Made by a program: the position numbers and the translations under genes. DNA of 64,000 bases, from NCBI GenBank assembly GCA_964492615.1, contig CAZBKZ010000006.1:18712-82711 (forward strand), read 5' to 3'. Positions 12,871-41,160 of the stretch are shown one piece after another (position 1 is the first letter of the stretch; each line of letters opens with the position of its first letter). Below the pieces are notes generated by a model. The model was not told where the DNA came from and did no database searches. It worked only from the letters and a program-made list of their open reading frames with translations. Source of the stretch: an uncultured Syntrophomonadaceae bacterium (GTDB lineage: Bacteria > Bacillota > Dethiobacteria > DTU022).

Positions 12871-12876
12871 GGCTAT

Positions 12877-13539: not shown

Positions 13540-13608
13540 GGCAAACCTCTTTCAGGTAATAAATTGACAACTTCACAATATCTAATTTGTCATAATAAGC
13601 AAACTTCG

Positions 13609-20098: not shown

Positions 20099-20126
20099 AA
20101 CTATTAAGGTTAACTACTAACCGGAA

Positions 20127-24489: not shown

Positions 24490-25370
24490 AAGAACAGGGA
24501 ACATTTAGGGTAAAAAAAGGTATGGCCCAGATGCAAAAAGGCGGGGTTATCATGGATGTTACCACCGTTGAACAGGCCCGTATTGCAGAGAAAGCCGGCG
24601 CGGTTGCCGTTATGGCCCTCGAGCGTGTCCCGGCCGATATCAGAGCCGCAGGAGGAGTGGCCAGGATGGCTGACCCCGAGATGGTAACTAAAATCATGGA
24701 CGCAGTTACCATCCCCGTGATGGCCAAGGTTAGAATCGGTCATTTCGCCGAAGCACAGATTCTGGAAGAACTCGGTGTGGATTATATTGATGAAAGTGAA
24801 GTGCTCACCCCAGCTGATGAGCAATATCATATAAACAAGCACCTGTTTAAAGTTCCATTTGTCTGTGGTGCCAGAAACCTGGGTGAAGCTTTAAGGCGAA
24901 TTTCAGAAGGGGCAGCCATGATTCGTACCAAGGGAGAACCTGGAACAGGTAACGTTGTTGAGGCTGTCCGTCACATGCGTAAGGTGATGGATGAAATACG
25001 CCAGGTCCTCGGCAAAGTAGATGATGAACTGGTTGTAATGGCTAAGGAAATGGGCGTTTCTATTGAAATGTTAAAGGAAGTCAGGGAAGCAGGACGTCTC
25101 CCGGTTGTAAACTTCGCCGCAGGAGGCATCGCCTCCCCGGCAGACGCTTCACTGATGATGCAACTTGGTTCAGATGGTATTTTTGTAGGTTCGGGAATAT
25201 TCAAATCGGAAAAACCCCAATTGGTTGCCGAGGCGATTGTTCAGGCTACCTTGCATTATGATGATCCGGCTTTACTGGCTAAAATCTCCAGGGGTTTGGG
25301 TGAAGCTATGCCCGGTTTGGAAATGTCTACCCTTACCGAAGCAGACCGTATGCAAGAACGGGGTATTTAG
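24486..25370 (+). CDS. pdxS: Pyridoxal 5'-phosphate synthase lyase subunit
   Basis: [35 protein letters not shown] is highly conserved PdxS sequence. Confidence 0.85.
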
Positions 25371-25373
25371 TAG

Positions 25374-25952
25374 ATGAAGATTGGTGTTCTATCAGTACAG
25401 GGCGCAGTCTCTGAACACATATCCCTGCTAGAAAAGTGCGGTGTGGAAGCATTAAATGTAAAAAGCATTGACATGCTTAACGAGGTTTGCGGCCTAATTA
25501 TTCCCGGCGGAGAAAGCACTACCATTGGGAAGTTAATTGAATTATTCGGTCTGGCAAAATCAATAAAAGAGCGTGCTGCATCAGGCAACCTTGCCGTTTT
25601 TGGTACCTGCGCCGGCATGGTCTTAATGGCTTATGAGATTTCTGACGGTCTTGAAAACCAACCGCGCCTCGGGTTAATGAATATCCGGGTTAAGCGCAAT
25701 GCCTTCGGCCGACAGAGAGAAAGTTTTGAAGCAGAAATTGACTTTAACTCATTTACAGAACCACTGACCGGAGTTTTTATAAGAGCTCCTTTAATTGAAA
25801 GTGCAGGAGATAATGTCGAGATACTGGCTAAACTGCCCGAAGGCATTATAGCTGCCCGGCAGGGAAATCTTCTGACAACCTCCTTTCATCCGGAACTGAC
25901 TGACGACAGCAGGGTTCACCAATATTTTGCAGAGATGTGTAAAGGGATTTAA
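25374..25952 (+). CDS. pdxT: Pyridoxal 5'-phosphate synthase glutaminase subunit
   Basis: Class-I GATase with GTCAGMVLM catalytic Cys; adjacent to pdxS. Confidence 0.85.
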   Translation: MKIGVLSVQGAVSEHISLLEKCGVEALNVKSIDMLNEVCGLIIPGGESTTIGKLIELFGLAKSIKERAASGNLAVFGTCAGMVLMAYEISDGLENQPRLGLMNIRVKRNAFGRQRESFEAEIDFNSFTEPLTGVFIRAPLIESAGDNVEILAKLPEGIIAARQGNLLTTSFHPELTDDSRVHQYFAEMCKGI

Positions 25953-26002
25953 TTTTATATGCCCGAGCCCGGTGGGCTGGGAAGATATAAAAACATTTCC
26001 CC

Positions 26003-26045
26003 CAAAACCCCTCTCCTCCCAGGCGAGAGGGGTTTTGGTTTTATG
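26003..26045. terminator. Bidirectional rho-independent terminator between pdxT and guaA
   Basis: AAAACCCCTCTC-ctcccaggc-GAGAGGGGTTTT (12-bp stem) followed by GGTTTTATGTTT. Confidence 0.6.
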
Positions 26046-26158
26046 TTTCCACCATTCCGAAGTTTACTTCTGCAGCACTATTTCTCCTTCCGGGGGAGAA
26101 AGTTTTATTTATTCAGCTCTACCCTTCTATTCAAGACGACAGCAGGCTCACTGCCCGG

Positions 26159-27763
26159 CTACTCCCACTCTATTGTGCCTGGCGGTTTGGAGGTAATATC
26201 ATAAACCACACGTGCTGCTTCTGCTATCTCACCAGTGATTCTGGCCGAAGCTTTCTCAAGAAGGTCGTGCGGCAGGCGTGCCCAATCGGCAGTCATGGCA
26301 TCTTCCGACAGCACAGCTCTCAGAGCTATGACCGGACCGTAATGACGATCATCCCCTTTAACCCCGACCACATTAACTCCTGTTAATACAGCAAAATACT
26401 GCCACAGATCATCTTTCAAGCCGGCTTTATCAATCTCTTCCCGAAATATCGCATCCGCTTTCTGAAGCAGTAGCAGTTTGTTTTCTGTAATTTCACCAAT
26501 AATCCTGACAGCCAAACCGGGGCCCGGGAATGGTTGTCTTTTTAATATCGAGTCAGGCAGTCCCAATTCAGACCCTACCAGGCGAACTTCATCTTTAAAA
26601 AGTTCACGCAGCGGTTCAATTAAATCAAAACCAAGTTCATCCGGCAAACCACCAACGTTGTGATGTGACTTTATAACAGCTGATCCGTTAACCGTACCAC
26701 TTTCGATTACATCCGGATAAATAGTACCCTGGGCCAGGAAAGTAATATCTCCCATGGAAAGGGCTTTTTCTTTAAAAACATTAATAAACTCAGCACCGAT
26801 GATCATTCTTTTTACTTCAGGGTCCATGATGCCGGTTAATTTATCCAAAAATTGTTTTCGGGCGTCAATATGTATAAAACGTCCTTTCAACCTTTCCTGG
26901 AATAATTTTACAACCTGCTTTGCCTCATCCAATCGCAATAATCCATGATCCACAAAAATATAGACAGCCCTGTCCGCTACAGCTTTATCCAACAAAAAGG
27001 CCACGACCGAGGAATCCACACCACCGCTTAAAGCACATACCACCTTATCCTTTTCACCAAGGGTATTCCTGATCATACTTACAGCATCATTAATAAAACT
27101 GCCCGGGCTCCAGGTTTTTTCACACCGGCAGACATTGAACAGGAATGCCTTTAGAACGCTGTTTCCTCCGGGAGTGTGAAAAACTTCAGGATGAAACTGA
27201 ACACCGTATATCTTTTTTTCGTGACTGCCGATAGCCGCCAGGGTATTATTTTCTGTGCGGGCTAATACCGAGAAACCGGGTGGTGTATTCAATACCTCGT
27301 CCTGGTGACTCATCCAGCCACAGTTGTTCTCTTTATCATTGAACAATTCGTCGGAGAAAAGAGGGTTCTTCTCAACTATACTGAATGATGTTCGGCCAAA
27401 CTCGGAACGGTTACCTTTTGCCACTTTCCCGCCTAGTTCCAGGGCCAGCAGTTGCATTCCGTAACAGATACCGAGAATTGGCACTTTACCTTCGTAAACA
27501 GCAAGATCACAGCGGGGAGCATCATTTCCATGCACAGAAGCAGGGCTTCCGGAAAGAATAATGCCGGCAGGATTAAGAGCGGCAATATCATTCCAGGCCG
27601 TATTATAAGGAACAAGTTCGCAATATACGCCTGCCTCCCTGATTCTTCTGGCGATTAACATACTGTATTGACCGCCAAAATCAAGGATTACAACCTTTTC
27701 ACGCAAGCTGCCGGAATCGTCAGCCAAAAAATGCTTCATCAATTTAATAAATTCTCCTTTCAA
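26159..27763 (-). CDS. guaA: GMP synthase (glutamine-hydrolysing)
   Basis: GATase GICYGMQ, PP-loop SGGVDSSV and C-terminal ...IEWE. Confidence 0.85.
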   Translation of the reverse strand: MKGEFIKLMKHFLADDSGSLREKVVILDFGGQYSMLIARRIREAGVYCELVPYNTAWNDIAALNPAGIILSGSPASVHGNDAPRCDLAVYEGKVPILGICYGMQLLALELGGKVAKGNRSEFGRTSFSIVEKNPLFSDELFNDKENNCGWMSHQDEVLNTPPGFSVLARTENNTLAAIGSHEKKIYGVQFHPEVFHTPGGNSVLKAFLFNVCRCEKTWSPGSFINDAVSMIRNTLGEKDKVVCALSGGVDSSVVAFLLDKAVADRAVYIFVDHGLLRLDEAKQVVKLFQERLKGRFIHIDARKQFLDKLTGIMDPEVKRMIIGAEFINVFKEKALSMGDITFLAQGTIYPDVIESGTVNGSAVIKSHHNVGGLPDELGFDLIEPLRELFKDEVRLVGSELGLPDSILKRQPFPGPGLAVRIIGEITENKLLLLQKADAIFREEIDKAGLKDDLWQYFAVLTGVNVVGVKGDDRHYGPVIALRAVLSEDAMTADWARLPHDLLEKASARITGEIAEAARVVYDITSKPPGTIEWE

Positions 27764-27820
27764 ACTGCCAGATTCCCGGTCTTGAGCAATCAGGAACTTA
27801 ACTGGTGAAACTTATTCTAT

Positions 27821-27852
27821 AAAAAGCAAAACCCCGTTTAAACCCGGGGCCT
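27821..27852 (-). terminator. Terminator at the end of the kinase island
   Basis: On the minus strand, GGCCCCGGG-TTTAAA-CGGGG is followed by TTTTGCTTTTT. Confidence 0.5.
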
Positions 27853-27936
27853 GCTGCCAAATCACATTATCTGCTTCACAAAACTTCAGCTTAATTCAGG
27901 CTTAAACCGGACTTCTTGATTCTTCTTCATCTGTTA

Positions 27937-30045
27937 CTAAAAACCGCTTTCCAACAAGTTACGTCCACTGCCATCCAGGCGAACCTTATAGATGTTATCC
28001 TGTTCGGCCTGATCCATGTAAAGTATCCAGTCACCGATTACGTTTATGTAGCGAACCGCTTCGGATACCAGTTTAACTCTTCCTGTACCGTCTGTTTTTA
28101 CTTTATTCAGCGAGAATTCGTCCTCTTCGTCGGCATAGTAGATCCAACCATCAGCAACATTGATAAACCAGGCTGGCTGTTCAATTACTTTTTCATTTTC
28201 AGAGCCATCAGTCTTCATTCTATAAATACTTGATCCGTCATCCTCATTAATATAATAAACCCAGCCATCAGCCACATTTATACTGGATGAAGCGTTATCA
28301 TTAATTTTTTCTTTCTGGCCGGCATCAGAACTAACCCGGTAAATTTTATTTCCATCATCACGGTTAGCATAGTAGATCCAGTCTTCTTCTATATATAGAG
28401 ACCATGCGGTATCTTCACTAAGCCTTGTCTTCCCCTCTCCGCTGCTGCTGATTCTGTAAAGACGATAATCATCGCTTTCATCAAGATAATAGAGCCAACC
28501 GTCTGCCAGCGTTGTGAACCAGGCTCCGTTGTCTGTAAGTGACTCCCTGTTTCCGCCATTCCGGTCAACTCTGTATATTCTATTATTATCATCACGGTTG
28601 CTGTAATAAATATAATCTCCGGATACATTAATAAACCAGGCAGAATCCACACTGATTGCCCTTGTTTCACCCGAACCGGAAGTTCCCACCTGCAGACTTC
28701 CCCCCTGGTTACTGCGGAAGAAAATTTGATCGCCCTGGAGAGCAGCCAGACCACCATTACTAATATTCCCTCCGCTGTTCCCAAAATAATTGGCTTCTGT
28801 TTGTACACTACCCTCGTTAACAGCAGCATCAATTTCGTTTTCTACTTCCGGCCCTGCTCCAACGGATTGATCTGTAGTAACATCCGCATCACTTCCACCT
28901 AAAACTCCACTGGCCCAAAGTCCATACCCCCCGGCGCCAATTACCAGGGCGGCAACCACACCGATAATCAGGCTCAAAGGGATTGCTTTCTTTTCAGTTT
29001 CAGTTTTTACAGCAGCACCAGCTGCCTGATTTATAGCAGCAGGAGTCGGGGCAGTTACACCACCCGTGCATTTACCCATCAACACATCCTGAAAGTCCTG
29101 GATACTTTGAAAACGGTCTTCAGCACGGACAGCAAGAGCTTTTAATAAAGCTTTTTCTTCGTCATCGTTAAGCGCAGCACCCAGTTTCGATGGCGGTTCC
29201 AAGGGATCTTCGACAAGCCGTTCCAGCGCCTCGGGCGGTTGTTTACCGGTTACCAGGTGGTAATAAGTAGCTGCGATAGCGTAAATGTCGGTCCAAGGCC
29301 CCTGCACTCCCTTACTTCGATATTGTTCTTCAGGGGCATAACCGGGTTTGAGAATTATCGACAAGCTTCGCCCTTTTTCACCAATTGCCTGGCGGGCAGC
29401 GCCAAAATCGATCAAGATCACCTGACCTTTTTTGTTGATAAAAATATTATCCGGGCTTATATCGCGGTGTAGGATATTTACCGAATGGACCTCCTTCAGG
29501 GCATCCATAACAGGCATTAAAATGCCCCGGGCCTGGTCAACCGGCAACACTCCACCGGCATTCGCCAAATGCTCTTTAACAGTAATTCCTTCTACATAGC
29601 TCATTACAAAATAAGCAGTTCCGTTAGCTTTGAAGAAATCGCGAACTGAAACGATATTGGGATGCCCTTCAAACTGGGCCAGGGTCCGTGCTTCCTGGAG
29701 GAACTTATCCAGGCCGTATTCATACTGGCTACCCATACTTCCACTGTATGCCGACACCTGGCTATGCCCGGCAGCCCTTGAGGCAAGATCCTGGGGAAAG
29801 TATTCCTTAATCGCCAGTTTAACATTCAGATTGAGATCCCAGGCCAGATAAGTTATGCCAAAACCGCCCTGCCCGAGCACCCGACCAACAAGGTACTTAT
29901 TCTCAAGAACTGTGCGCGGTGGCAAGTATAAAGGTGATTCAGGCGCTGTTCCTTCAACAAAGCCGCAGTTTGAACATTTAGCTTCATCACCCGGTTTTTC
30001 TGTCATACAACCCATGCATAATCTATCAATATCCAAAGGAATCAC
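27937..30045 (-). CDS. Ser/Thr protein kinase: N-terminal zinc ribbon, kinase domain, TM, and extracellular DUF5050-like beta-propeller repeats
   Basis: CMGCMTEKPGDEAKCSNCGF zinc ribbon; GQGGFGITY, LAIKE, HRDISPDNIF, DFGAAR and APEE kinase motifs; a TM helix; and six ~40-aa WIYY..N..DG..IYR...DGS repeats. Confidence 0.8.
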   Translation of the reverse strand: MIPLDIDRLCMGCMTEKPGDEAKCSNCGFVEGTAPESPLYLPPRTVLENKYLVGRVLGQGGFGITYLAWDLNLNVKLAIKEYFPQDLASRAAGHSQVSAYSGSMGSQYEYGLDKFLQEARTLAQFEGHPNIVSVRDFFKANGTAYFVMSYVEGITVKEHLANAGGVLPVDQARGILMPVMDALKEVHSVNILHRDISPDNIFINKKGQVILIDFGAARQAIGEKGRSLSIILKPGYAPEEQYRSKGVQGPWTDIYAIAATYYHLVTGKQPPEALERLVEDPLEPPSKLGAALNDDEEKALLKALAVRAEDRFQSIQDFQDVLMGKCTGGVTAPTPAAINQAAGAAVKTETEKKAIPLSLIIGVVAALVIGAGGYGLWASGVLGGSDADVTTDQSVGAGPEVENEIDAAVNEGSVQTEANYFGNSGGNISNGGLAALQGDQIFFRSNQGGSLQVGTSGSGETRAISVDSAWFINVSGDYIYYSNRDDNNRIYRVDRNGGNRESLTDNGAWFTTLADGWLYYLDESDDYRLYRISSSGEGKTRLSEDTAWSLYIEEDWIYYANRDDGNKIYRVSSDAGQKEKINDNASSSINVADGWVYYINEDDGSSIYRMKTDGSENEKVIEQPAWFINVADGWIYYADEEDEFSLNKVKTDGTGRVKLVSEAVRYINVIGDWILYMDQAEQDNIYKVRLDGSGRNLLESGF

Positions 30046-30092
30046 TCCATTCGCTTCTACCGGCTAAAATAGATATATGTTGTAATAATATA

Positions 30093-30821
30093 CTAAGAAA
30101 CAATTAATGCAAGTGCAGAATAATTATCGTGACCTTCCTCTGCTTTACTGATAACCTTTCCTTCCATAATCTCAAGCCACTTTTGAGTCGTTCTGCTTTG
30201 AGCCAGGCTATCTTCCATCTCTGATTCTATAACATATTCCCAAAACCCGTCACTGCATAAAAGAAAACGGTCCCCCTCCTCTAACCGCACCGGCTTATCT
30301 GAATAGCGAATTTTGTTGAAATTACTGCTGTCAAAAGAGGCTGTCAACCTGTTACGATCTTCATGAAAGCGAATCTCATCTGCTGTTATACTACCGCTGT
30401 CGGCCAGATGCTGCGGGACACTGTGATCCCTGGTCTGAAAAGCAAGCCTGCCCGACCTAAACAGGTATAGCCTGGAGTCACCAACATGAGCCCAACAGGC
30501 CTTGTCCTCGCCGGTTAACAAGACGACCAGGGTTGTTTTTAAAGACGACTCCTTTCTTTCTGCACTTCTTAGTTGTTCAAGGGCCAAGGCGGCATTTCGC
30601 ATATATTCCTGTAACTTTTCAGTTGAAAAACCGGGGGACGCATTGAACGAAGATATTATACTTTTAGCTACAGCTTTTGAAGCAATATCACCACCGCGAT
30701 GACCACCCAGCCCATCAGCCATGATATAGCAACCGAACTCGTCAAGAATGTTGTAGTCGGTATAATCTTCATTAACCTTACGTCCACCGGGGTTAGAAAG
30801 CATGGAAACATCAATTTTCAT
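30093..30821 (-). CDS. PP2C-family Ser/Thr phosphatase
   Basis: ADGLGGHRGGDIASK and DGFWE metal-binding motifs. Confidence 0.8.
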   Translation of the reverse strand: MKIDVSMLSNPGGRKVNEDYTDYNILDEFGCYIMADGLGGHRGGDIASKAVAKSIISSFNASPGFSTEKLQEYMRNAALALEQLRSAERKESSLKTTLVVLLTGEDKACWAHVGDSRLYLFRSGRLAFQTRDHSVPQHLADSGSITADEIRFHEDRNRLTASFDSSNFNKIRYSDKPVRLEEGDRFLLCSDGFWEYVIESEMEDSLAQSRTTQKWLEIMEGKVISKAEEGHDNYSALALIVS

Positions 30822-30892
30822 GTTGCTTTTCCCTTTTGAGAAATCTCAGTTTAGTTATATTTACTGTAAACAAAAACTCATGTTACTATTCA

Positions 30893-31720
30893 TTAAGCTG
30901 TCCTGCGCTGCTTTATAAACAATACGAGCAGCACAACAATAATGAGAACAATGACACCCAACCCCAGGAAAATATAGTTATCATAATCAGTTGGGCTATC
31001 AACTGGTTGTTCTTCTGCCGCAACTTCATCAACCTCAGGCTGTTCAACCTCTTCAGTCATACCTTCATCATCATTGGCAGCAGAGATCAGCTGGTCAACA
31101 CTTTCATCTGCCTCGCTCTCTTCAACAGTAACATTACTGAAAGTAAAAATCTGATCATTATCTTCAGCTCTGGCTATAATCCGTGCTTCTCCACTCCTGT
31201 AAGCTGTAGCAAGGCCATTTTGATCAACTGTTATTACCCCATTATCACTGGACTGCCAAATTAAATCTGAGACAGTAGCATACTGAGGTTCGACCGTTGC
31301 CTCATACTGCACCTCTTCACCAGGGGCCAGGACAACTTCAAGAGGTTCCAGGAATATCTTGCTGATCGGCACAACAACTTCAACCCTGCAATAATTCTGG
31401 AACTGACCATCTTCAGTAGTTGCATAAATATTAGTTGTACCCGGACTCAAAGCCTCTATTACAACTGTCGACCCACTTCTTTCAATTATTTGGACCTTAT
31501 TTTTATCACCTGAATACCAGCTAACTTTTTTATTGCTTGCACTTGCAGGTATTACCCATGCAGATAATTCTTCAGTCGTAAAAATTTTCATGACTAGTTC
31601 TGTGGTTTCCATATATATGCCTGTAACTGGAACCTCATCTTCAGCATAAGCAACCGTGCCTATGACAATAATAACTATAATTATAAAAAACGATATTTTT
31701 ATTAGTCTTCCAGCATACAT
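30893..31720 (-). CDS. Bitopic membrane protein with two Ig-like (Big_2-type) domains and an acidic tract
   Basis: TM helices at both the N- and C-terminus. Two ~80-aa domains, VSWYSGDKNKVQII...TNIYATT and LIWQSSDNGVITVD...ARIIARA. Confidence 0.5.
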   Translation of the reverse strand: MYAGRLIKISFFIIIVIIVIGTVAYAEDEVPVTGIYMETTELVMKIFTTEELSAWVIPASASNKKVSWYSGDKNKVQIIERSGSTVVIEALSPGTTNIYATTEDGQFQNYCRVEVVVPISKIFLEPLEVVLAPGEEVQYEATVEPQYATVSDLIWQSSDNGVITVDQNGLATAYRSGEARIIARAEDNDQIFTFSNVTVEESEADESVDQLISAANDDEGMTEEVEQPEVDEVAAEEQPVDSPTDYDNYIFLGLGVIVLIIVVLLVLFIKQRRTA

Positions 31721-31737
31721 TTTCCACGCCTCATTTC

Positions 31738-33660
31738 TTACCGACCTATAAAGTTGTTATTCTCCCAAATCCCAATTCTTTTTGTCCCATCCGGGTAAGT
31801 CATTACTCCCTCACCATGCATCTGCCCATCCAGCCACTGTCCATCATATTTACGTTCTCCACGCTGCACAAGCCCGGCTGAGGTCTGCTCGACTTCATAA
31901 ATCAAGCTTCCTTCACCGTGAGGCAAACCGTTTTTTAACTGTCCGGTATAAGTTCCTCCCAGGTAAGCAATAGTACCGGTTTCAATCAATTCATCATTTA
32001 AGGACCCGGCAGAAGCTGAATGATTATCTTCTTCCCTAACTGCTTCCCCATGGCTACCAATTGATATAAGGGCAACCGGTTCTTTCTGGCCTTGGTTGTT
32101 AATCAGCATTACAGCAATAACCACAATAACCAACATTGCTGAAGCAATAGCCAGCAAAAGCTTATTACCACGCCGGCTTGTTTTAGATAATACTCCAACG
32201 TTACTGCTGACCGCACCGGCAGCACTATCTTCAGTTGAAAACAACATATTACCATTTTTTGCATAAAATTTGGTTCCATCAAAAAATATTTCAGTATGAC
32301 TGAATTTTAAATGAGAATTAGCAAGCAATCTCATATCACTCTCAACCCTGGTATCGTTCATAAAAGTACCGTGGGTACTGTTTAAATCAGCAACATACCA
32401 CTCACCTGAATAGTAATAAATGCGGGCATGATAACGGGATACGGTACTGTCGTTTAAAACAAGTACATTACCGGGATCCCTTCCAACTGTTATTTCATTG
32501 CCCGTATGGCTGACAGGACGCGGAATAAGCGATTCGACGTGGTACAAATTGTTCGGCTCGCAGTTTTCATGACTAAACCCGTTTTCTAATCCAGTGCTGC
32601 CAACAGTTTGCTGCGAATCTTCTGCAACTGTTCGGTCCTGGTATAAATCTCCCTGGCCGGTCGTTATGCGACCACCCTGCTCATTAAGAGCATCCCACAA
32701 TGCCTTTTGAAAGTCAGCTACAGCCTTGAAACGATTTTCTGCTTTTACAGCAAGGGCAGTCATTAAGGTCTCCTCTGCAGCGGGGCTGTATGAAAATCCT
32801 AAAGCAGTAGGCCTGACCAAGGGATCATCGCTTAAACGATCAAGTGAATCAGGGATCATTCTACCGGTAGTTATCCTGTAAAATGTAGCTGCAGCAGCAT
32901 AAATATCTGTCCAGGGGCCCTGCTTGCCCCTGCTCCGATACTGTTCTTCAGGAGCATAGCCAGGTTTTAATATGATTGACATGTTTTTTGCTTTTTCGCC
33001 CATTGCGTGGCGCGCAGCACCAAAGTCAAGCAGTATTACCCTGCCTTCAGTGGTAATGAATATATTATCCGGACTTACATCCCTGTGCAGTAAACCTTCT
33101 TCATGTATGGCATTCAGAGCATCAAGCACAGGCATCATCACTTGAACTGCTTCTTCGAATGAAAGCTGCTCCCCCCTCTGGGCGAGATAATCGTAAAGAT
33201 TAATACCTTCAAGGTAAGGCATAACCAGGTAGGCAGTATTATTGCTTTTAAAAAAATCCCTAACTGTAACTATATTGGGATGCCCCTCAAAGAGGGCAAG
33301 GGTTTTAGCTTCAGCAAGAAATTTTTCTAACCCATAATTATACTGTTCAGCCATCTCATAGGAATATAAAAATACCTCGCTGTTTTCAGCCATTCTACAG
33401 GCAAGCTCCCTGGGGAAAAACTCCTTCACAGCCAGCATACGATCCAAATAAATATCCCAGGCCAGGTAAGTAATTCCAAAACCGCCCTGGCCGAGAACTC
33501 TGCCCAGTAAATATTTTTCATTAATTACTGACCGAGGCGGTAGATGCATAGCTGATTCAGGCCGGGCACCCTCAACCCAACCACACAGAGGACATTCTGT
33601 TTTATTTCCCTTAATACCCATACAGCCCATACACAGATGATTCAAGTCCATCTTTAACAC
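31738..33660 (-). CDS. Ser/Thr protein kinase: N-terminal zinc ribbon, kinase domain, TM, FHA domain and C-terminal MORN repeats
   Basis: CMGCMGIKGNKTECPLCGW zinc ribbon, HRDVSPDNIF and DFGAAR kinase motifs, FHA ITVGRDPGNVLVLNDSTVSRYHARI...STHGTFMN, and MORN YDGQWLDGQMHGEGVMTYPDGT. Confidence 0.8.
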   Translation of the reverse strand: MLKMDLNHLCMGCMGIKGNKTECPLCGWVEGARPESAMHLPPRSVINEKYLLGRVLGQGGFGITYLAWDIYLDRMLAVKEFFPRELACRMAENSEVFLYSYEMAEQYNYGLEKFLAEAKTLALFEGHPNIVTVRDFFKSNNTAYLVMPYLEGINLYDYLAQRGEQLSFEEAVQVMMPVLDALNAIHEEGLLHRDVSPDNIFITTEGRVILLDFGAARHAMGEKAKNMSIILKPGYAPEEQYRSRGKQGPWTDIYAAAATFYRITTGRMIPDSLDRLSDDPLVRPTALGFSYSPAAEETLMTALAVKAENRFKAVADFQKALWDALNEQGGRITTGQGDLYQDRTVAEDSQQTVGSTGLENGFSHENCEPNNLYHVESLIPRPVSHTGNEITVGRDPGNVLVLNDSTVSRYHARIYYYSGEWYVADLNSTHGTFMNDTRVESDMRLLANSHLKFSHTEIFFDGTKFYAKNGNMLFSTEDSAAGAVSSNVGVLSKTSRRGNKLLLAIASAMLVIVVIAVMLINNQGQKEPVALISIGSHGEAVREEDNHSASAGSLNDELIETGTIAYLGGTYTGQLKNGLPHGEGSLIYEVEQTSAGLVQRGERKYDGQWLDGQMHGEGVMTYPDGTKRIGIWENNNFIGR

Positions 33661-33686
33661 CCTTTGGTTACTTTAGGGTTACAATA

Positions 33687-34238
33687 CTACTCTTTTTCTT
33701 CGTCCTTTTTCCATTCGAATTGTTCACCACAAAATGGTATAAACACAAGTTGTGACTGTCCGATTTCAATTACATCATAGGGTGAAAGAGTCACCGGAGT
33801 GATAACCTCTTCATCATTTAAATATACAAGCCCCCTGCCTTCCCCTGGATAAAGGCGGTAGGTTTTATTCTTGGGACTGAAACTAACAATGGCGTGATTA
33901 TCCCTTGATATGGAATCATCACCAGGAATACTGACATCCATTTTGTCTGATCTGCCAATAAAGTTTTTTTCTGCAGTAATGCGGTAATCTTTTCCTTTTT
34001 CAGGGCCTTGAACGGCTACCAGCCAGCCAACTACCGGATCAATACCAAGCTTCTTTTTAAAAACCCCAACCGTTTTACCATCATTGGAAGCACCGGGTTC
34101 CCCGCTGCCAGGTCTTTTAGCCATTGTTTTTTTAATCGATATATCCAGGTTTTGGACTCCACAAAAGGGGCAACTGCTGTGTTTGCTTGAATCATAATAG
34201 TGTCCCTTTTCGCATCTTGTTAAAGAATCCATCTCCAC
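33687..34238 (-). CDS. Zinc-ribbon plus FHA-domain protein
   Basis: RCEKGHYYDSSKHSSCPFCG zinc ribbon and FHA FIGRSD...SRDNHAIV...NDEEV. Confidence 0.7.
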   Translation of the reverse strand: MEMDSLTRCEKGHYYDSSKHSSCPFCGVQNLDISIKKTMAKRPGSGEPGASNDGKTVGVFKKKLGIDPVVGWLVAVQGPEKGKDYRITAEKNFIGRSDKMDVSIPGDDSISRDNHAIVSFSPKNKTYRLYPGEGRGLVYLNDEEVITPVTLSPYDVIEIGQSQLVFIPFCGEQFEWKKDEEKE

Positions 34239-34365
34239 ACTCCCTCACGTCTTGATCTTATTCGTATCCGTTTTGCCATCCCGGTGACAAAAGTCACCGG
34301 GATGATTTACCAAAACACATAAAAACCTTCTAACTGATTTTTTACAGCTTAAATAGCTTTGGCGT

Positions 34366-35880
34366 TTATTCTAAGGTAAGCTCAAATAGCTCTTTTGAAT
34401 CGGAAATATAGAAACGATCACCCGTATTCAAATAGTGGGTCTTACCTGTCTCCAGTCTTTGATTGGAAGGCAGAAAGGTGCCATTTGAAGATGAATCTTC
34501 AAGGCTGAACCTTTGAGCATTTTCATCATAAGAAATAGTAACATGTTTCCTGCTAACTTCTTCAAAAGACTGTGGATAAACAAGTTGAGCAAGCTTGGGG
34601 TCACGTCCTATAATCAGTTGCCCCTGGATTAGTTCAATTTTCTGCCCGGCAAAGTGACCTGAAATACCCTTCACACTGGCCCTGGGCCCAACTGGCTTCG
34701 CTTTTGTTACCGGGGCGGCTGCAGTTTTTACGCTGGCCTGGGTTACCGGAGAAGTTGATGCCCGTTGGGTAGGGGGAGCCTGCATGGGAGGTGACCCAAC
34801 TGAAGCCCTGGCAGGTGCCGGCTTATTGCCCCTGCTTAAAAGTATTATTAACACTATAACAATAATTAAAGCTGCTGCACCTATGGCAACATACATGATC
34901 GGAAAACCGCTTTCTTCAACCGGCGGGGTGGTTGTTTCTACTACCGGTTCGGGCTGTGGCTCGGGCTCAGTAATCGGTTCGGGTTCAGGTACCGGAGGTT
35001 CTTCAGCTGTTTGATCTACTACAGGGGCACCCGCTCCTGCTTCGATATAGGGGATTCCTCTTGAACGTAGAAAATCTGTCAAGACGTCTATCTGCACGGC
35101 GTAGTTAATTTCTGAAGGAATCACCGCATCGCCGGTTATTCTCACTATGCCACCCGAGGCTATACCGATAACAACTCCATCCCTGTTAACCAATGGTCCA
35201 CCAGAATTTCCACCACTGATCGCTGTATCAGTTTGAAAAACCGGGACTCCTTCCGAAGAAGTTATTCTGCTGACAATCCCTTTCGTAATAGTTGAATCCG
35301 AGTAATGCGCCGTATTCAAATCTGACAACACTTCAGCAATCCCGGGGTAACCAATAGCATAAACCTCTTCACCGCGCTGTACCATTCCGGTATGACCGAA
35401 CTCAAGCACTTCATAACCAAACAAGCGGTGCCTGGGGTCTATTTCAAGGACTGATATATCGGAGGTCATCAACGAATCGTATACCGCAATCGGAACATAG
35501 TCATCCCTGGCCCTGACAAGATACAGGCCTATTTCTTCAACATTTCTTACCCGGAAAGGGTTCGGCCAGTCAAGGGCGCGATTCCGGTTTATAACATGAA
35601 AATTTGTTACAACATATCGGAATTCCGCTGTATCATCAACACCAACTAAAAAACCGCTGCCCATGTGAACATAAAGATCGCTTTCATCGAAATCACCTGT
35701 GATGGGGTCCCTTAAGGCATCCCTCCAGGCCTCGGTATTCGGCAATTTCCAGGCTATCATCACTACACTCTTGGACGCTCTGTCTACTGCTTCCTGGGCA
35801 AAGGCGGGGCTGCAAACACTAATAATCATTAAGATTGCAATTGCTAAAAGTATTAACGAACGCGTTAAGGTTATTCTCAT
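34366..35880 (-). CDS. Trypsin-like serine protease fused through a TM helix and Pro-rich linker to a C-terminal FHA domain
   Basis: Signal peptide; S1 triad context TNFHVI...GNSGGPLV; TM helix IMYVAIGAAALIIVIVLIILL; PEPEP linker; and FHA LIIGRDPKLAQLVYP..VSRKHVTISYD...SNGTFL. Confidence 0.7.
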   Translation of the reverse strand: MRITLTRSLILLAIAILMIISVCSPAFAQEAVDRASKSVVMIAWKLPNTEAWRDALRDPITGDFDESDLYVHMGSGFLVGVDDTAEFRYVVTNFHVINRNRALDWPNPFRVRNVEEIGLYLVRARDDYVPIAVYDSLMTSDISVLEIDPRHRLFGYEVLEFGHTGMVQRGEEVYAIGYPGIAEVLSDLNTAHYSDSTITKGIVSRITSSEGVPVFQTDTAISGGNSGGPLVNRDGVVIGIASGGIVRITGDAVIPSEINYAVQIDVLTDFLRSRGIPYIEAGAGAPVVDQTAEEPPVPEPEPITEPEPQPEPVVETTTPPVEESGFPIMYVAIGAAALIIVIVLIILLSRGNKPAPARASVGSPPMQAPPTQRASTSPVTQASVKTAAAPVTKAKPVGPRASVKGISGHFAGQKIELIQGQLIIGRDPKLAQLVYPQSFEEVSRKHVTISYDENAQRFSLEDSSSNGTFLPSNQRLETGKTHYLNTGDRFYISDSKELFELTLE

Positions 35881-36039
35881 GAAACCATCCCTCCACTTTT
35901 TTATTAAACCGGATTGGTTTGCCGATAGAGCTGACCGAACAGTATAGCAAAAACTACTTTTAAATAGTACCCCCCCAGTATCAATATAATTAATCCGGCT
36001 ACAGGAATAAAAGCAAATGCACCGCCCCTTTTAATGTGA

Positions 36040-36987
36040 TCATCCCGACAATATTGACAGCACCACTACTGTCACGTTATCCTGATGTGGATTATTTTTA
36101 GTTAAAACCTCTTTAACCATCTCTTCAGCTACGTTATTAAAACTATTGCGAAGAACAGTAATAATTTCATTTTCAGTCAGTGTATTAGTCAGTCCATCAC
36201 TGCAGAGTAATATTTTGTCACCGTTCAGCAAATCAAGAGGCTCTTCCTCCTGACATATTTCTTTTAAATCGGCCAGACCCAAATAACTGGTCAGATAATC
36301 CCTCTCGGGATGCTCAAGCGCTTCCTGCGCTGTCAACCTGCCATTGGTAACATCATCTTCGAGATAATTGGCATATATATGATCCCTGGTTAACTGCTTT
36401 AAACTGTTATTCCGATAGAGATATATTCTGCTGTCGCCAGCGGATATCCAATGTAGGTGATTGCCGATAATAACTGCTGCAACTATAGTGGTGCCGAGAT
36501 CGTGTTCTTCAAATTGGCCATACGCCAAATCAAATACAGCAGTATTGGCTATTAGCATAGCACGCTTCATGGTCTGGGCTATTGTTTCTGAGACTTTTCT
36601 ATTTTCATATGTTTTCATAAATGCAGCCGAGGCAACAGTGCTAGCTTCCTCTCCGAGTTCAAGCCCACCCATACCGTCGGCAACGAGAGCGAGAATGCCG
36701 TTGTCCTCTACAAACTTGTCATTGCTGAAATCAGATATAGCAAAAGCATCTTCCTGGTTTTCCCTGGCGCCAACATGTTGAAAGTTAGATGGGATCACCT
36801 GGAGCGCACGACTAACCCGGGCTGCTACTGTTTTTTTCCTTTTTGTCGGTTTTGTTTCTTCTGATTGGGCGATATAAGTATCTTGCTTCTTTTTCTTCCC
36901 AAAAAACATATTTACTATCGCCACCTGACCATATGGTTTCCTCTTGTGCCTGATTCTTATATTAGCTTCTCTTCGCCCTGCATGCAT
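36040..36987 (-). CDS. PP2C-family Ser/Thr phosphatase (second copy)
   Basis: ALVADGMGGLELGEEAS and CSDGLTN motifs. The basic N-terminal extension may be over-called; an alternative start is MFFGKKKK near 36909. Confidence 0.75.
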   Translation of the reverse strand: MHAGRREANIRIRHKRKPYGQVAIVNMFFGKKKKQDTYIAQSEETKPTKRKKTVAARVSRALQVIPSNFQHVGARENQEDAFAISDFSNDKFVEDNGILALVADGMGGLELGEEASTVASAAFMKTYENRKVSETIAQTMKRAMLIANTAVFDLAYGQFEEHDLGTTIVAAVIIGNHLHWISAGDSRIYLYRNNSLKQLTRDHIYANYLEDDVTNGRLTAQEALEHPERDYLTSYLGLADLKEICQEEEPLDLLNGDKILLCSDGLTNTLTENEIITVLRNSFNNVAEEMVKEVLTKNNPHQDNVTVVVLSILSG

Positions 36988-37096
36988 CTGGCAATTGTTT
37001 TTATTATTTCTACATCATTTTATTAATTCCTTTTATTTACTCTTAAGAGGCAGAAAATATCGACTGGCTTATCATAACTTTTTTTGGGCCAAACTA

Positions 37097-37125
37097 TTGA
37101 CACTAACTGTAAAAACGTATATACT
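37097..37125 (+). promoter_or_regulatory. Consensus sigma-A promoter for glnA
   Basis: TTGACA at 37097-37102, exact 17-nt spacer, TATACT at 37120-37125. Confidence 0.55.
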
Positions 37126-37131
37126 TTTTTT

Positions 37132-37190
37132 GGGCAAAGGCGCCCGTCATTCAGTCATATGACTGCAGGCGGGCGTTTTTATTTTTATTT
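37132..37190 (+). promoter_or_regulatory. glnA leader attenuator: terminator hairpin with a competing upstream hexaloop hairpin (candidate ANTAR target)
   Basis: GGGC-AAAGGC-GCCC is a hexaloop hairpin with A at position 1 and G at position 4, overlapping the 5' arm of the CGCCCG...CGGGCG terminator stem. An inner palindrome CAGTCATATGACTG lies between them and TTTTTATTTTT follows. Confidence 0.5.
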
Positions 37191-37212
37191 AATACAAAAG
37201 GAGCTGTTGTTA

Positions 37213-38541
37213 ATGGGTAAAACAAAAGATGACGTTCTCGCCATGGCAAAAGAATCAGGAGTGAAGTTTATCCGCCTGCAGTTTACCGATCTTTCAGGGC
37301 AATTAAAGAATGTGGCGATAACCTCGGACCAACTGCCAAAAGCACTCGATAACGAGCTGATGTTTGACGGATCGTCAATTGAAGGGTTTGTAAGAATTGA
37401 AGAGTCAGACATGTATCTCAGGCCGGACTTTGATACCTTTACTGTCTTCCCCTGGAGCCCCAGTGAAAATGGTGTAGCCAGGCTAATGTGCGATGTTTAT
37501 ACGCCCGAGGGCGAGCCATTTGCCGGCTGCCCCCGCAGCCAGCTTAAAAAAATGATCGCTTTAGCCGCTGAAAAAGGCTATACGATGAACTGCGGTCCTG
37601 AAGCAGAGTTTTTTATGTTCCATACCGATGAAAGCGGCGCACCCACCTTGGAAACACACGATAAGGGAGGATATTTTGACCTTGCCCCGACCGACCGTGG
37701 CGAAAGCGCCCGCCGCGATATGGTCCTGGGCCTGGAGCAGATGGGACTGGAAATTGAAGCATCTCATCATGAAGTGGCCCCCGGACAGCATGAAATAGAT
37801 TTTAAATACGGCGATGCCCTGCATACAGCAGATGATCTTTCCACATTCCGCTTTGTAATCCGCACAATCGCCCAGAGACACGGTCTCTATGCTACATTTA
37901 TGCCGAAGCCGATCGCCATGATTAACGGTTCCGGTATGCACACCCATCTCTCACTTTTTAAAGATGGCAAGAACATTTTCAACGATCCCGGAGCTCCGGA
38001 CGAAATCAGCCAGGAAATGCTCTGGTTTATCGGCGGCCTGCTTAAACATGCCAAAGGTTTTACTGCCGTTACAAACCCGCTTGTTAACTCATATAAACGC
38101 CTGGTGCCCGGTTATGAAGCACCAGTTTATATCGCCTGGTCATACCGTAACCGCAGCCCGCTAATCAGGATACCTGCCCGCAGGGGCATCGGTACCAGGT
38201 GTGAGTTACGCAGCCCCGATCCTTCCTGCAACCCATACCTTTCTTTCGCCGTTATGCTCCGTGCCGGCCTTGACGGTATTGAAAACAAAATTGATCCGCC
38301 TGATCCGGTTAACCTGAATATCTATACCATGAGCGATGAAGAAAAAGAACAGCACAACATTGAAAGCTTACCGGGTACCCTATATGATGCAATAATAGAA
38401 CTCGATAAAGACAAGGTTATACAGGAAGCTCTTGGAAAACATATTTACGATCGCTTCCGCGAAGGCAGAATGAAGGAATGGCTTGATTACCGGATCCAGG
38501 TGCACGATTGGGAAGTTAAACAATATCTGGCAAGGTTCTAG
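37213..38541 (+). CDS. glnA: Glutamine synthetase type I
   Basis: MGKTKDDVLAMAKESGVKFIRLQFTDLSG. The true ATG at 37213 is preceded by AAAGGAG. The track ORF is extended upstream across the promoter and leader. Confidence 0.85.
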   Translation: MGKTKDDVLAMAKESGVKFIRLQFTDLSGQLKNVAITSDQLPKALDNELMFDGSSIEGFVRIEESDMYLRPDFDTFTVFPWSPSENGVARLMCDVYTPEGEPFAGCPRSQLKKMIALAAEKGYTMNCGPEAEFFMFHTDESGAPTLETHDKGGYFDLAPTDRGESARRDMVLGLEQMGLEIEASHHEVAPGQHEIDFKYGDALHTADDLSTFRFVIRTIAQRHGLYATFMPKPIAMINGSGMHTHLSLFKDGKNIFNDPGAPDEISQEMLWFIGGLLKHAKGFTAVTNPLVNSYKRLVPGYEAPVYIAWSYRNRSPLIRIPARRGIGTRCELRSPDPSCNPYLSFAVMLRAGLDGIENKIDPPDPVNLNIYTMSDEEKEQHNIESLPGTLYDAIIELDKDKVIQEALGKHIYDRFREGRMKEWLDYRIQVHDWEVKQYLARF

Positions 38542-38564
38542 CCAAATTCTTTAAAAGTAAAATG

Positions 38565-38602
38565 TCCGGGCAGCCCCTGCCGCTTAACAGGGGCTGCCCG
38601 GA
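38565..38602. repeat. 15-bp perfect inverted repeat (stable hairpin) between glnA and the ANTAR gene
   Basis: TCCGGGCAGCCCCTG-ccgcttaa-CAGGGGCTGCCCGGA, with no U-tract on the plus strand. Confidence 0.5.
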
Positions 38603-38667
38603 TCACTTATCCTGATTAAAAACTGGAAGAAAAATTCCGCTCCAACATCGTCTATACTTGCCATTGT

Positions 38668-39300
38668 TTGAAAATAACCATAGTATATAAAAAGAATCAA
38701 CGCTGCAAGGAGAACCGTATGCTAAATAATAACTGTGATTACTGCATCGGCACTAACAACGCGGCATTTAAACAGTTCATCTCAACCGTTCTTAATCAGG
38801 CCGGCTACTACTCGGCTGGTAACGCAAAAAACATACCCTCATTGCTACGCCTGTTACGTTCAGTACAGCCCTGGCTTGTCGTGGTTGACACTGAGCTGCC
38901 GCCAGGAAATATCAGCGAACTTGCCGACATCATTGAAAACGACGCCCTCGCTGCAGCTATCTATATTAACACCGGAACTACAAAAATCGATGGTTATGTT
39001 TCCCTTGATTACCCTGTAAAACAGCAGGTTCTAATTGCTGTTGCTAATGCTGTATGCAGCGAATATGCCCGCAAAAAAAGGATGCATTCAAAGATTGCAT
39101 CCCTTCAGCAAAAAATTGATGAACAGAAAATTATCGACAGGGCTAAACGCCTGTTGATCAAAAAATATTCACTTAGTGAAGAAGAGGCTTTTCGCCTTAT
39201 TCAGAAAAACAGTATGGACTGCCGCATCTCCATGGCCGAAACAGCCACCAGGGTAATCAGCAACCCCGGGACTTTTGCCTCTTTATTGCCGCCCCGATAA
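38668..39300 (+). CDS. ANTAR-domain RNA-binding antitermination regulator (NitR/GlnR-of-Clostridium type) with an N-terminal receiver-like domain
   Basis: C-terminal ANTAR consensus [43 protein letters not shown]. Confidence 0.7.
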
Positions 39301-40870
39301 AATCCCTGAAAAGCGGGTGAGCCCGGGTCGGGCGCGATTTAAACTCGGGATGAAACTGGACCGCCAGAAACCAGGGATGATCTTTCAGTTCAATCATTTC
39401 AACCAGATCATCCTGACGGTTATAACCGCTGAATATCATTCCGGCCTCTTCCAATAATTTGATATAACTGTTATTAAATTCGTACCTGTGGCGATGCCTT
39501 TCTGAAATTTCTTCCTGTTTATAAGCTTTTTCCGCCAGGGTACCCTTTTTTATCGTACAGGGATATGCGCCAAGCCGCAGCGTTCCTCCAATACGGGTAT
39601 TATCTTTTTGCCCGGGCAGGTAATCGATTACCGGGTCAGGTGTATCTGAATCGAATTCAGTGCTATTCGCTTCACTAATACCGGCAACATTACGGGCAAA
39701 CTCAATTACAGCGCACTGCATACCGAGACAGAGGCCGAGAAAAGGTATTTGGTTATCGCGGGCCGTACGTACAGCTTCAATTTTACCTTCAATTCCTCTC
39801 TCGCCAAACCCTCCCGGCACCAGAATTCCATCAACTTCGTTCAGTATATTACCGGCTTTCCCCTGCTCAATATCCTCGGCCTGAACCAGCACAGTATTAA
39901 CTTTTACATTGTGTTCCATTCCGGCATGATCCAGGGCGGCATTAATACTGATGTAGGCATCGGGAAGGGCTATATACTTGCCGACTAGAGCAACAGATAC
40001 TTCTGCCTGCAAACTCTTGGCCTGCTCAACCATATTCCCCCATTGAGACATATCTCCGGGCCCGCACGCGAGGTTAAGCTTATTTACAACCATCTGGTCA
40101 AGATTCTGTTCCCTGAGCAGCTGGGGTACTTCATAAATTATGTCAGTGTCAATATTTTCAACAACCTCTTCCGGCTGAACGTTGCAGAAAAGAGCTATTT
40201 TTCTTTTCAGATCATCACCAAGATGCTGTTCAGTCCGGCAAACTATCAAATCAGGCTGTATACCGATTGAGCGCAATTCCTTTACACTATGCTGTGTCGG
40301 CTTGGTTTTTAGCTCACCAGACATGCGTAAAAAGGGAACCAGCGTCACATGAATGAACAATACATTTTCCCAGCCAATCTCATACCGTAGCTGGCGAATG
40401 GCCTCCAAGAAAGGCAGGCTTTCAATATCGCCCACAGTTCCGCCAATTTCGGTAATAACCAGGTCAAGATCACTTTGCTGCTCGGCCTTGGTAACACATT
40501 TTTTAATTTGATCAGTAATATGGGGAATTACCTGGACTGTATTGCCATTATATAAACCATCCCGCTCACCTTCAATTACTGACCAGTAGATCTTTCCGGC
40601 AGTAACATTATTGTTGCGAGTTAAATGTTCATCAATAAAACGTTCATAGTGCCCCAGATCAAGATCCGTTTCCGCCCCATCTTCAGTGACAAAAACCTCT
40701 CCGTGCTGGTAAGGGCTCATAGTTCCGGGATCGTAATTGATGTAGGGATCAAACTTTTGGATGGTTAGTTTAAGACCTCTGTTTTTCAACAAGCAGCCGA
40801 GAGATGCCGCTGTGATACCTTTACCCAGAGATGACACAACTCCGCCGGTAATAAAAATGTACTTTGCCAT
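39257..40870 (-). CDS. pyrG: CTP synthase
   Basis: [26 protein letters not shown]-terminus and GATase GLCLGMQ. Confidence 0.85.
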
Positions 40871-40933
40871 AAGCGCCCCCTTGCTGCTAATTGTAAAATT
40901 TACCTGTCAGCAACTGCTGCAGTTGGAACTGCT

Positions 40934-41116: not shown

Positions 41117-41160
41117 AACTGCACCTCCTCCCATTTATTGTACAGCCGCCAGGCGGCTAA

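Follow-up and report, generated by a model that had tools for sequence, protein, structure and literature searches.

A 64,000-nucleotide stretch of DNA from an uncultured Syntrophomonadaceae bacterium (contig CAZBKZ010000006.1; hereafter the window, to whose positions and strands the coordinates below refer) carries at 27937-36987 seven consecutive genes on its minus strand, which encode Ser/Thr receptor kinases, PP2C phosphatases, proteins with phosphothreonine (pThr)-binding FHA domains and a membrane-anchored protease. The question raised by this locus is whether these genes work together and, if so, what they control. The component domains and the general kinase/PP2C/FHA logic are already well known, and cassettes of Hanks kinases, PP2C phosphatases and FHA proteins usually have diffuse outputs, but here the constant partner is one unusual external protease with a cytoplasmic pThr reader. 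An earlier note on this DNA, made from the sequence alone, had proposed a co-directional Ser/Thr phospho-signalling module, and we found that intact domains and a conserved gene order support the proposal. To specialists, the module should be noteworthy, not startling, for three features: a fixed external protease that comes with a cytoplasmic pThr reader and two phosphatases, a PpkA ancestry without a type VI secretion system (T6SS), and the conservation of an adaptor protein.

Architecture of the locus

The seven genes are listed here in the order of transcription.

36040..36987, minus strand: PP2C-a (P1 type), 315 aa as the longest open reading frame (ORF); gene callers start at 36909 and give 289 aa (MFFGKKKK...); Pfam PP2C_2 and PP2C
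34366..35880, minus strand: membrane-anchored protease-FHA fusion, 504 aa; Pfam Trypsin_2 (1e-23) and FHA (4e-11), and transmembrane (TM) prediction
33687..34238, minus strand: zinc-ribbon-FHA protein (ZnR-FHA), 183 aa (181 aa by gene callers, start 34232); Pfam FHA
31738..33660, minus strand: receptor kinase K2, 640 aa, with a C4 zinc ribbon, Hanks kinase domain, FHA domain, TM segment 502-520 and external MORN repeats; Pfam Pkinase, FHA and MORN
30893..31720, minus strand: bitopic Big_2 membrane protein, 275 aa; Pfam Big_2 in two stretches, and TM prediction
30093..30821, minus strand: PP2C-b (P2 type), 242 aa; Pfam PP2C_2, with DGLGG, GDSR, SDG and DN motifs
27937..30045, minus strand: receptor kinase K1, 702 aa (699 aa by gene callers), with a C4 zinc ribbon, Hanks kinase domain, TM segment 354-372 and an external DUF5050/LRP1-like beta-propeller; Pfam Pkinase and DUF5050 (1e-63)

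The earlier note had described seven co-directional minus-strand genes with gaps of 17-159 nt, and the ORFs were found exactly where it had placed them. Its domain assignments were likewise borne out by a Pfam search, in which all the claimed domains of the seven proteins scored over the gathering cut-off. Hydropathy and TM prediction assign an extracellular location to the protease, Ig, MORN and propeller domains and a cytoplasmic one to the kinase, FHA and PP2C domains.

The catalytic and pThr-binding residues of these domains are preserved. Both kinases have an intact VAIK lysine (Lys80 in K1 and Lys78 in K2) and intact HRD, DFG and APE (PGYAPEE) motifs, as read from the translations, and the three FHA domains (in the protease, ZnR-FHA and K2) retain GR, SRxH and N. 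In PP2C-a, a basic N-terminal extension precedes a PP2C domain with DGMGG, GDSR, SDG and DN motifs; the protein scored 168 bits against the NCBIfam Stp1/IreP model, under the cut-off of 230, and is only 29% identical to PP2C-b.

Conservation of the gene order

One genome per species was scanned with a 10-sequence alignment of protease-FHA proteins, and the ORFs of the 35 loci returned were labelled using domains taken from the window itself. Approximately 24 of the loci (L005-L028), together with Ca. Contubernalis alkaliaceticus, keep one gene order (approximately 25 species-level genomes), namely PP2C-a, protease-FHA, PP2C-b, ZnR-FHA, kinase-FHA(-MORN), Big_2(-FHA) and kinase(-MORN or -DUF5050). 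Among the carriers are many 'Syntrophomonadaceae' metagenome-assembled genomes (MAGs) with names suggesting soda-lake sediments, as well as Tindallia and two Anoxynatronum species. Recurrence of one gene set in one order across about 25 other species-level genomes puts the clustering far outside what chance would produce, and the overlapping or nearly abutting module genes often seen in these relatives support co-transcription. Loss of the gene order in relatives was what the earlier note had named beforehand as evidence against the module; the order proved to be strongly conserved. We regard it as almost certain that the seven genes form one conserved functional module.

A five-gene form, consisting of PP2C-a, protease-FHA, PP2C-b, a zinc ribbon-kinase-TM-external PASTA protein and ZnR-FHA, is present in the Bacillaceae Robertmurraya andreesenii, Bacillus taeanensis and Priestia abyssalis. 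When all ORFs of 30 loci were clustered, the core families alone were shared. The conserved core comprises the two phosphatases (PP2C-a and PP2C-b), ZnR-FHA, the external S1 protease with its FHA tail in the cytoplasm, and a single zinc-ribbon receptor kinase of the PpkA subfamily or a pair of them. Looser PP2C/protease-FHA/PP2C triads with FHA proteins and kinases nearby exist in further loci, including one metagenome contig on which the triad is accompanied by three kinases and the planctomycete-like contig described below. An unclassified bacterium (L041) encodes both a protease-FHA and a vWA-FHA protein and is intermediate between the module and the vWA cassettes compared below. FHA-tagged membrane proteins recur as module members, namely the protease, Big_2-FHA, FHA-DUF4013 and an ABC exporter.

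The phosphatases fall into two clean orthogroups with fixed positions. PP2C-a always lies upstream of the protease gene (approximately 38-79% identity across loci), and PP2C-b orthologues (43-73% identical) directly follow the protease gene in all loci but the window and its relative L005, where PP2C-b has been shifted to a place behind the Big_2 gene. The window's Big_2 protein comprises a TM segment, two external Ig-like Big_2 domains, an acidic stalk, a C-terminal TM segment (250-268) and a 7-residue cytoplasmic tail, whereas in at least 12 orthologues the C-terminus is formed by an FHA domain that shares its subtype (GISGxFAGQ...) with the protease tail; judging from this comparison, the C-terminal FHA domain was lost in the window and L005. 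The moved PP2C-b and the lost Big_2 FHA domain mark the window as a derived form of the module.

Several loci show variations on this theme. In L016 (11882-14353; a 'Syntrophomonadaceae' MAG), the position of the second kinase is occupied by an FHA-FHA-ABC_tran-ABC2_membrane protein with the architecture of Rv1747. In L010 (13867-15936) and L027 (14740-16704), both module kinases have a GYF_2 domain on the cytoplasmic side, located between kinase domain and TM segment, and kinase-FHA fusions are absent; GYF_2, a binder of proline-rich peptides, could provide an alternative docking on the Pro-rich protease tail. On a planctomycete-like contig (L043, 6381-16877), the genes encode FHA, MotA/ExbB, FHA, PP2C, protease-FHA, PP2C and a 764-aa kinase, and the gene for a TPR-CHAT (caspase-like) protein comes next. 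A partial module in L047 (9229-14110) has PP2C-b, ZnR-FHA, kinase-FHA and kinase genes and lacks the protease and PP2C-a; it may be a remnant, since it has IS21, IS91 and DDE transposase genes to either side, no more than about 7 kb away. The FHA-only matches L031-L039, from Klebsiella and from gammaproteobacterial and myxobacterial MAGs, had been considered as a link to TagH and were dropped, the Klebsiella match (L034) being a generic FHA protein amid metabolic genes.

Kinases of the PpkA subfamily

K1 and K2 are 59% identical over the 322 aa of zinc ribbon and kinase domain and are thus paralogues. The best solved match to both was the kinase domain of PpkA (5hnv; 192 bits for K1 and 180 bits for K2, each 39% identical), which we take to be the T6SS kinase of a Serratia strain, whereas PknB and StkP scored about 89 bits. 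K1 and K2 have in common with PpkA a long insert between the catalytic lysine and helix C and the motifs LKPG(Y/F)AP(E/I)EQY and GPWTDIYA. On these similarities, we assign both window kinases to the PpkA subfamily. This assignment was independently supported by a tblastn search of annotated plasmids, which revealed a 45%-identical kinase encoded directly after tssJ-tssK-dotU-tssM-tagF in Caballeronia grimmiae; the best plasmid matches came from Azospirillum and are uninterpretable, as the records carry no annotation.

This PpkA subfamily is very large (22,059 cluster representatives at E <= 1e-30), and its C-terminal domains are so highly varied (MORN, DUF5050, DUF6273, Big_2, LRR_5, choline-binding, Sel1, SBP and TIR_2) that its members behave as receptor kinases with interchangeable sensors. 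The propeller of K1 matches PDB 3s25.

The earlier note had remarked that neither T6SS genes nor cell-wall genes of the mycobacterial type lie nearby. Its observation holds, in that the 64-kb window has no T6SS, type VII secretion system (T7SS), Tad, rodA or pbpA genes; in particular, Pfam annotation of nearly the whole window found none of the T6SS core genes (TssA-M, Hcp and VgrG), nor are any shared among the 30 loci. T6SS is not known to occur in Bacillota. The contrast with T6SS must nevertheless be qualified, because with both kinases in the PpkA subfamily, T6SS is the closest known relative at the kinase level. The PpkA kinase lineage is thereby extended to Gram-positive bacteria without T6SS, which bears on the origin of the T6SS phosphorylation switch.

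PpkA-type kinases would also be in keeping with a module that acts in trans on a membrane machine encoded elsewhere in the genome, for instance a T7SS variant or a Tad pilus, as a threonine phosphorylation pathway like that of T6SS, with the protease as an accessory. Membrane kinases, PPM phosphatases and FHA proteins are frequent in new T7SS subtypes of Bacillota, where even a DUF5050 propeller component is found, and the variants T7SSc-j are defined by the EssC/TsxC ATPase and WXG100 proteins (PMC11217815). However, these hallmarks (the FtsK-like ATPase EssC/TsxC and WXG100), like Tad and T6SS components, are absent both from the window and from the families shared by the 30 loci, and the gene that invariably accompanies the kinases and phosphatases is that of the protease-FHA protein. 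We consider such a remote target quite unlikely.

Control of division or peptidoglycan synthesis, as by the actinobacterial pknA-pknB operon, is another explanation: the FHA proteins would bring in components of division or elongation, and the role of the protease would be to process a wall hydrolase, in the way that MarP processes RipA. The window resembles that operon in combining two kinases, separate FHA proteins and PP2C (two in the window); the Bacillaceae form has a PASTA kinase, and there are weak matches to the FhaB/FipA and MarP families. These matches lie far under the NCBIfam cut-offs, however (23-61 bits for the window proteins against FhaB/FipA NF049868, cut-off 125), as do the scores of the window kinases against the PknB PASTA kinase model NF033483 (146-148 bits, cut-off 450); Pfam found no PASTA domain in either kinase, and both are much closer to PpkA than to PknB or StkP. 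In addition, no rodA, pbpA, ftsW or other division genes are linked in any locus. A role of this kind is unlikely, although it overlaps the envelope-surveillance part of the model that we propose below and differs from it mainly in the target.

The adaptor and the protease

ZnR-FHA consists of an N-terminal C-x3-H...C-x2-C knuckle, a linker, an FHA domain and a C-terminal PFCGxxFxW motif. It is the most constrained component of the module: among 755 homologues, the window organism and Bacillaceae sequences are 53-59% identical, and such identity across bacterial classes indicates strong constraint. In the alignments, the knuckle and two linker threonines, T38 (KKTMAK) and T56 (GKTVG), are invariant, and PFCGxxFxW is conserved. 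In an AlphaFold2 (AF2) model, the FHA domain is predicted with confidence, and the linker, with its pLDDT below 50, is predicted to be disordered. In a Foldseek search with this model, the FHA domains of GarA/OdhI, DgcB and Rv1747 ranked first. In these proteins, the FHA domain binds pThr in a disordered segment of the same protein or of a partner. ZnR-FHA did not match the NCBIfam OdhI equivalog model (NF041660).

The protease-FHA fusion (195 homologues with the protease-TM-FHA architecture) starts with a signal peptide or TM segment (9-27), followed by an external trypsin/HtrA-like S1 domain, a Pro/Glu-rich stalk, a TM segment (331-349), a cytoplasmic Pro/Thr-rich linker and the C-terminal FHA domain. 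Its catalytic triad (His95, Asp141 and Ser226) is intact, each residue being at least 90% conserved in the homologue alignments. Just ahead of the FHA domain, the linker contains T380 (PVTQA), which is conserved, and T392 (PVTKAKP), which is invariant. The closest solved structures to the protease domain are HtrA1/2/3, DegQ and DegS. Pfam found no PDZ domain in the window protease, and the NCBIfam models for HtrA, DegP, DegS and MarP all scored far under their cut-offs (for TIGR02037, 65.6 bits against 416).

A 'basic-T-V/M-A/G' motif was considered as a common link between PP2C-a, K2, ZnR-FHA and the protease tail and was rejected, as only the threonines of ZnR-FHA and the protease tail are conserved; some orthologues have Ser at the candidate position in the N-terminus of PP2C-a, and the K2 linkers lack conservation.

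Transcription signals and composition

Three sites that may bear on transcription were found on the minus strand.

37017..37046, minus strand: promoter-like site TTAAGA-18-TAAAAT upstream of the first gene, in the divergent region shared with glnA; from a consensus scan only, which is not evidence of function
34277..34304, minus strand: hairpin CATCCCGGTGAC-TTTT-GTCACCGGGATG in the 127-nt gap between the protease and ZnR-FHA genes, with a perfect 12-13 bp stem, very stable, and no U-tract
27829..27852, minus strand: intrinsic-terminator-like hairpin with a T-run, 85 nt past the stop of the last gene and before guaA; from a consensus scan

The earlier note had reported a terminator solely at the 3' end. 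The site at 27852..27829 is indeed the only canonical terminator-like site outside coding sequence, but the claim is qualified by the internal hairpin at 34277-34304. The gap that contains this hairpin has a folding energy of -40.2 kcal/mol (z = -4.4 vs shuffled sequences), and the stem is retained in L005 with two compensatory swaps, whereas its flanks diverge. The hairpin may act in attenuation or in mRNA stability. A search of 25500-41600 against Rfam yielded no RNA family, even at E = 0.1. The base composition of the module is unremarkable.

Genomic surroundings

The nearest genome is that of an uncultured 'Syntrophomonadaceae' MAG (L005), whose protease is 89% identical to that of the window, and contigs identical to the window's occur in several metagenomes. 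The module is flanked by guaA on one side and by glnA, an ANTAR regulator gene and pyrG on the other. This context (pyrG-ANTAR-glnA, module, guaA) is kept in five genomes, in which the protease orthologues have about 35-89% identity to that of the window, the arrangement being common to L005, L013, L020 and L025. The position of the module between glnA and guaA in five genomes argues for long vertical inheritance, not mobility. We reject a horizontal-transfer origin, given the ordinary composition and this synteny; the 'island' of the earlier note should not be taken to imply horizontal acquisition.

The same synteny bears on a further explanation, in which the locus is a conflict or anti-phage system whose kinases, with hypervariable sensors, detect invasion or envelope damage and trigger a protease effector. 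The C-terminal domains of the kinase subfamily are extremely diverse and include TIR_2, LRR_5 and Sel1, the kinase domains are matched by the PADLOC kinase models PD-T4-6 and mad6, a TPR-CHAT protein is encoded next to one distant locus, and transposases flank one partial copy. The PADLOC matches are, however, generic (kinase, PP2C and trypsin, with none for ZnR-FHA, Big_2 or PP2C-a) and form no system-level match. A locus that is syntenic amid housekeeping genes in five genomes and ordinary in composition is not what a defence system would lead one to expect, an external protease domain is an odd site for an abortive-infection effector, and two dedicated phosphatases point to reversible signalling. 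We judge an anti-phage role very unlikely.

The enzymes around the module raise the possibility of a metabolic switch of the GarA/OdhI type, in which phosphorylated ZnR-FHA would regulate the adjacent glutamine/nitrogen enzymes (glnA, guaA, pyrG and pdxST). ZnR-FHA has the layout of GarA/OdhI, which were its top fold matches, and glutamine-using enzymes flank the module in five genomes. That neighbourhood is confined to one lineage, however, the flanks in Contubernalis, Anoxynatronum, Priestia and B. taeanensis being unrelated; ZnR-FHA lacks a match to the OdhI equivalog, and the membrane protease, the Big_2 protein and the kinase ectodomains are left unexplained. We find this explanation highly improbable.

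According to Pfam annotation of nearly the whole window, the rest of it is devoted to housekeeping and energy metabolism. It contains genes for Rnf, a molybdopterin oxidoreductase, a multihaem cytochrome and cytochrome c maturation as well as sulfur-transfer genes and pdxST, and further genes encode an intein-containing ribonucleotide reductase, arginine biosynthesis and methylmalonyl-CoA mutase. At 23671-40870, the module lies among genes for glutamine-dependent enzymes: hisF-like, pdxS/pdxT, guaA, and glnA with the ANTAR regulator and pyrG. A 17-bp GC-rich terminator-like hairpin follows glnA (38565-38602), and the longest ANTAR ORF (38668-39300, plus strand) overlaps the 3' end of the convergent pyrG (39257-40870, minus strand) by 44 nt (39257-39300). 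L005 has an extra stand-alone DUF5050 propeller protein just past guaA (19808-20860, minus strand) that is absent from the window. The ribonucleotide reductase large subunit (41525-44842, plus strand, 1105 aa) contains an intein with a LAGLIDADG homing endonuclease (Pfam Intein_splicing and LAGLIDADG_3). On the minus strand at approximately 8750-15060, System I cytochrome c maturation genes (CcmA/B/C/E/F-like) adjoin those for a multihaem cytochrome, rhodanese, TusA/sulfur transport, the molybdopterin oxidoreductase and Rnf; this respiratory equipment is unusual for Bacillota and fits a sulfur- or metal-respiring lifestyle.

Proposed mechanism

We propose that the locus is a self-contained, vertically inherited operon for a transmembrane threonine-phosphorylation module that controls an external protease, and we give this model as a whole an even chance of being correct. 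Its basis in the sequence is a pair of single-pass kinases with intact catalytic residues and differing external domains (beta-propeller and MORN). An envelope or extracellular cue would activate the kinases via these ectodomains, and the kinases would phosphorylate T38/T56 of ZnR-FHA and T380/T392 of the protease tail, which lie in cytoplasmic linkers predicted to be disordered. The three FHA domains would bind the pThr sites and cross-link kinases, adaptor and protease into a membrane complex, which in relatives may include the Big_2 protein, too. This complex would set the oligomeric state, position or activity of the external HtrA-like protease, and the two ancient, non-redundant PP2C phosphatases would reset different phosphosites. 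The physiological field is likely to be cell-envelope surveillance and remodelling. In the T6SS pathway, assembly at the membrane is set off by means of the PpkA kinase, PppA and an FHA protein; this precedent, the external PASTA domains of the Bacillaceae form and the exchange of the second kinase for an Rv1747-like exporter in L016 support a role at the envelope.

Several observations weigh against this model. The AF2 model of ZnR-FHA does not dock the linker on the FHA domain, and conservation is lacking for the Thr motifs in the N-terminus of PP2C-a and in the K2 linkers, which leaves the FHA domains with no conserved candidate docking site on a kinase. Among the 30 loci, the module is not accompanied by any conserved transcription factor or other output gene. 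Signalling could also run in reverse, with the protease generating the signal or ligand for the kinases. A single transcript for the seven genes is no more than likely, given the strong hairpin inside the operon and possible internal promoters. Beyond the domain assignments, all steps of the mechanism are what we infer from sequence.

More broadly, the five-gene core might be a widespread and hitherto unrecognised inside-out signalling device, in which cytoplasmic Thr phosphorylation, read by the FHA tail of the protease, gates proteolysis on the outer face, and might also be the Gram-positive sister of the T6SS threonine phosphorylation pathway (TPP); we put this forward tentatively, as a possibility that we lean against rather than towards. 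The model nonetheless provides a concrete hypothesis for the control of extracellular proteolysis from inside the cell, and this hypothesis is genetically testable because cultured Bacillaceae carry the minimal five-gene form.

Comparison with known systems

The module is apparently undescribed: full-text searches of the accessible literature brought up no account of the protease-FHA fusion, the ZnR-FHA family or the operon. Kaur et al. (2020) described only unrelated kinase-PP2C-vWA contexts (PMC7159879). The following known systems resemble the module in part.

The actinobacterial operon fhaA-fhaB-pstP-rodA-pbpA-pknA-pknB likewise pairs two Hanks kinases with PP2C and separate FHA proteins. 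It contains rodA and pbpA, however, and the window differs further in that its kinases are not orthologues of PknA/PknB and its phosphatases are soluble, not membrane-anchored.

At the level of single components, ZnR-FHA resembles the GarA/OdhI and DgcB switches in combining a disordered segment that contains invariant Thr with an FHA domain closest in fold to those of GarA, OdhI and DgcB, but it has an N-terminal zinc ribbon and PFCGxxFxW and shows no link to 2-oxoglutarate or c-di-GMP enzymes. The protease shares the extracytoplasmic trypsin fold and the conserved His-Asp-Ser triad with HtrA, DegS and MarP; unlike these, it is anchored by a C-terminal TM segment followed by a cytoplasmic FHA domain and lacks PDZ. 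Rv1747, which is controlled by PknF, is also a membrane effector with cytoplasmic FHA domains, a Thr-rich linker and a neighbouring kinase, but the FHA-tagged effector of the window is a protease, not a transporter.

The vWA cassettes of Deinococcus and Gloeothece combine a zinc-ribbon PpkA-subfamily kinase, an FHA or STK-FHA protein and PP2C in one cluster. In D. radiodurans (L048; NZ_OV024759.1, 236147-245123), a VWA-kinase-FHA-PP2C operon that matches DRA0331-0334 is directly followed by a gene for a 987-aa zinc-ribbon kinase with right-handed beta-helix repeats, which is 41% identical to K1 and annotated only as a beta-helix protein. A study of DRA0331-0334 described FHA/PP2C push-pull control of kinases (bioRxiv 10.64898/2026.01.23.701218). 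A plasmid locus of Gloeothece verrucosa encodes vWA, FHA, PP2C, STK-FHA and a zinc-ribbon kinase; its STK-FHA protein is colinear with K2 (31% identity over 404 aa), and its small FHA protein has no detectable similarity to ZnR-FHA. Unlike the window, these cassettes have a single PP2C (fused to KI-FHA in Deinococcus), no protease-FHA and no Big_2 protein. Conversely, Pfam found no VWA match in the seven window proteins, and VWA-FHA occurs only in the distant L041.

The T6SS TPP (PpkA, PppA and Fha1/TagH) is alike in its logic, in which a PpkA-type receptor kinase that crosses the membrane once is opposed by a PP2C and an FHA protein serves as the membrane-side reader of pThr. The best match of a window FHA protein to the Fha1/TagH model (TIGR03354) was 34.3 bits, against a cut-off of 120, and Pfam identified two PP2C proteins as candidates for the role of PppA. 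The window differs in having two kinases, two phosphatases, three FHA proteins and an external protease as the constant partner. The kinase ectodomains differ as well, being a propeller and MORN repeats in the window, whereas PpkA of P. aeruginosa has a vWA domain. The module may follow the PpkA/PppA/Fha logic of T6SS with a membrane-tethered protease in place of the secretion machine. If the five-gene core is indeed the Gram-positive sister of the TPP, the PpkA/PP2C/FHA cassette would be an ancient, portable 'assemble on phosphothreonine' controller, attached in one lineage or another to a protease, an ABC exporter, a vWA protein or a secretion machine.

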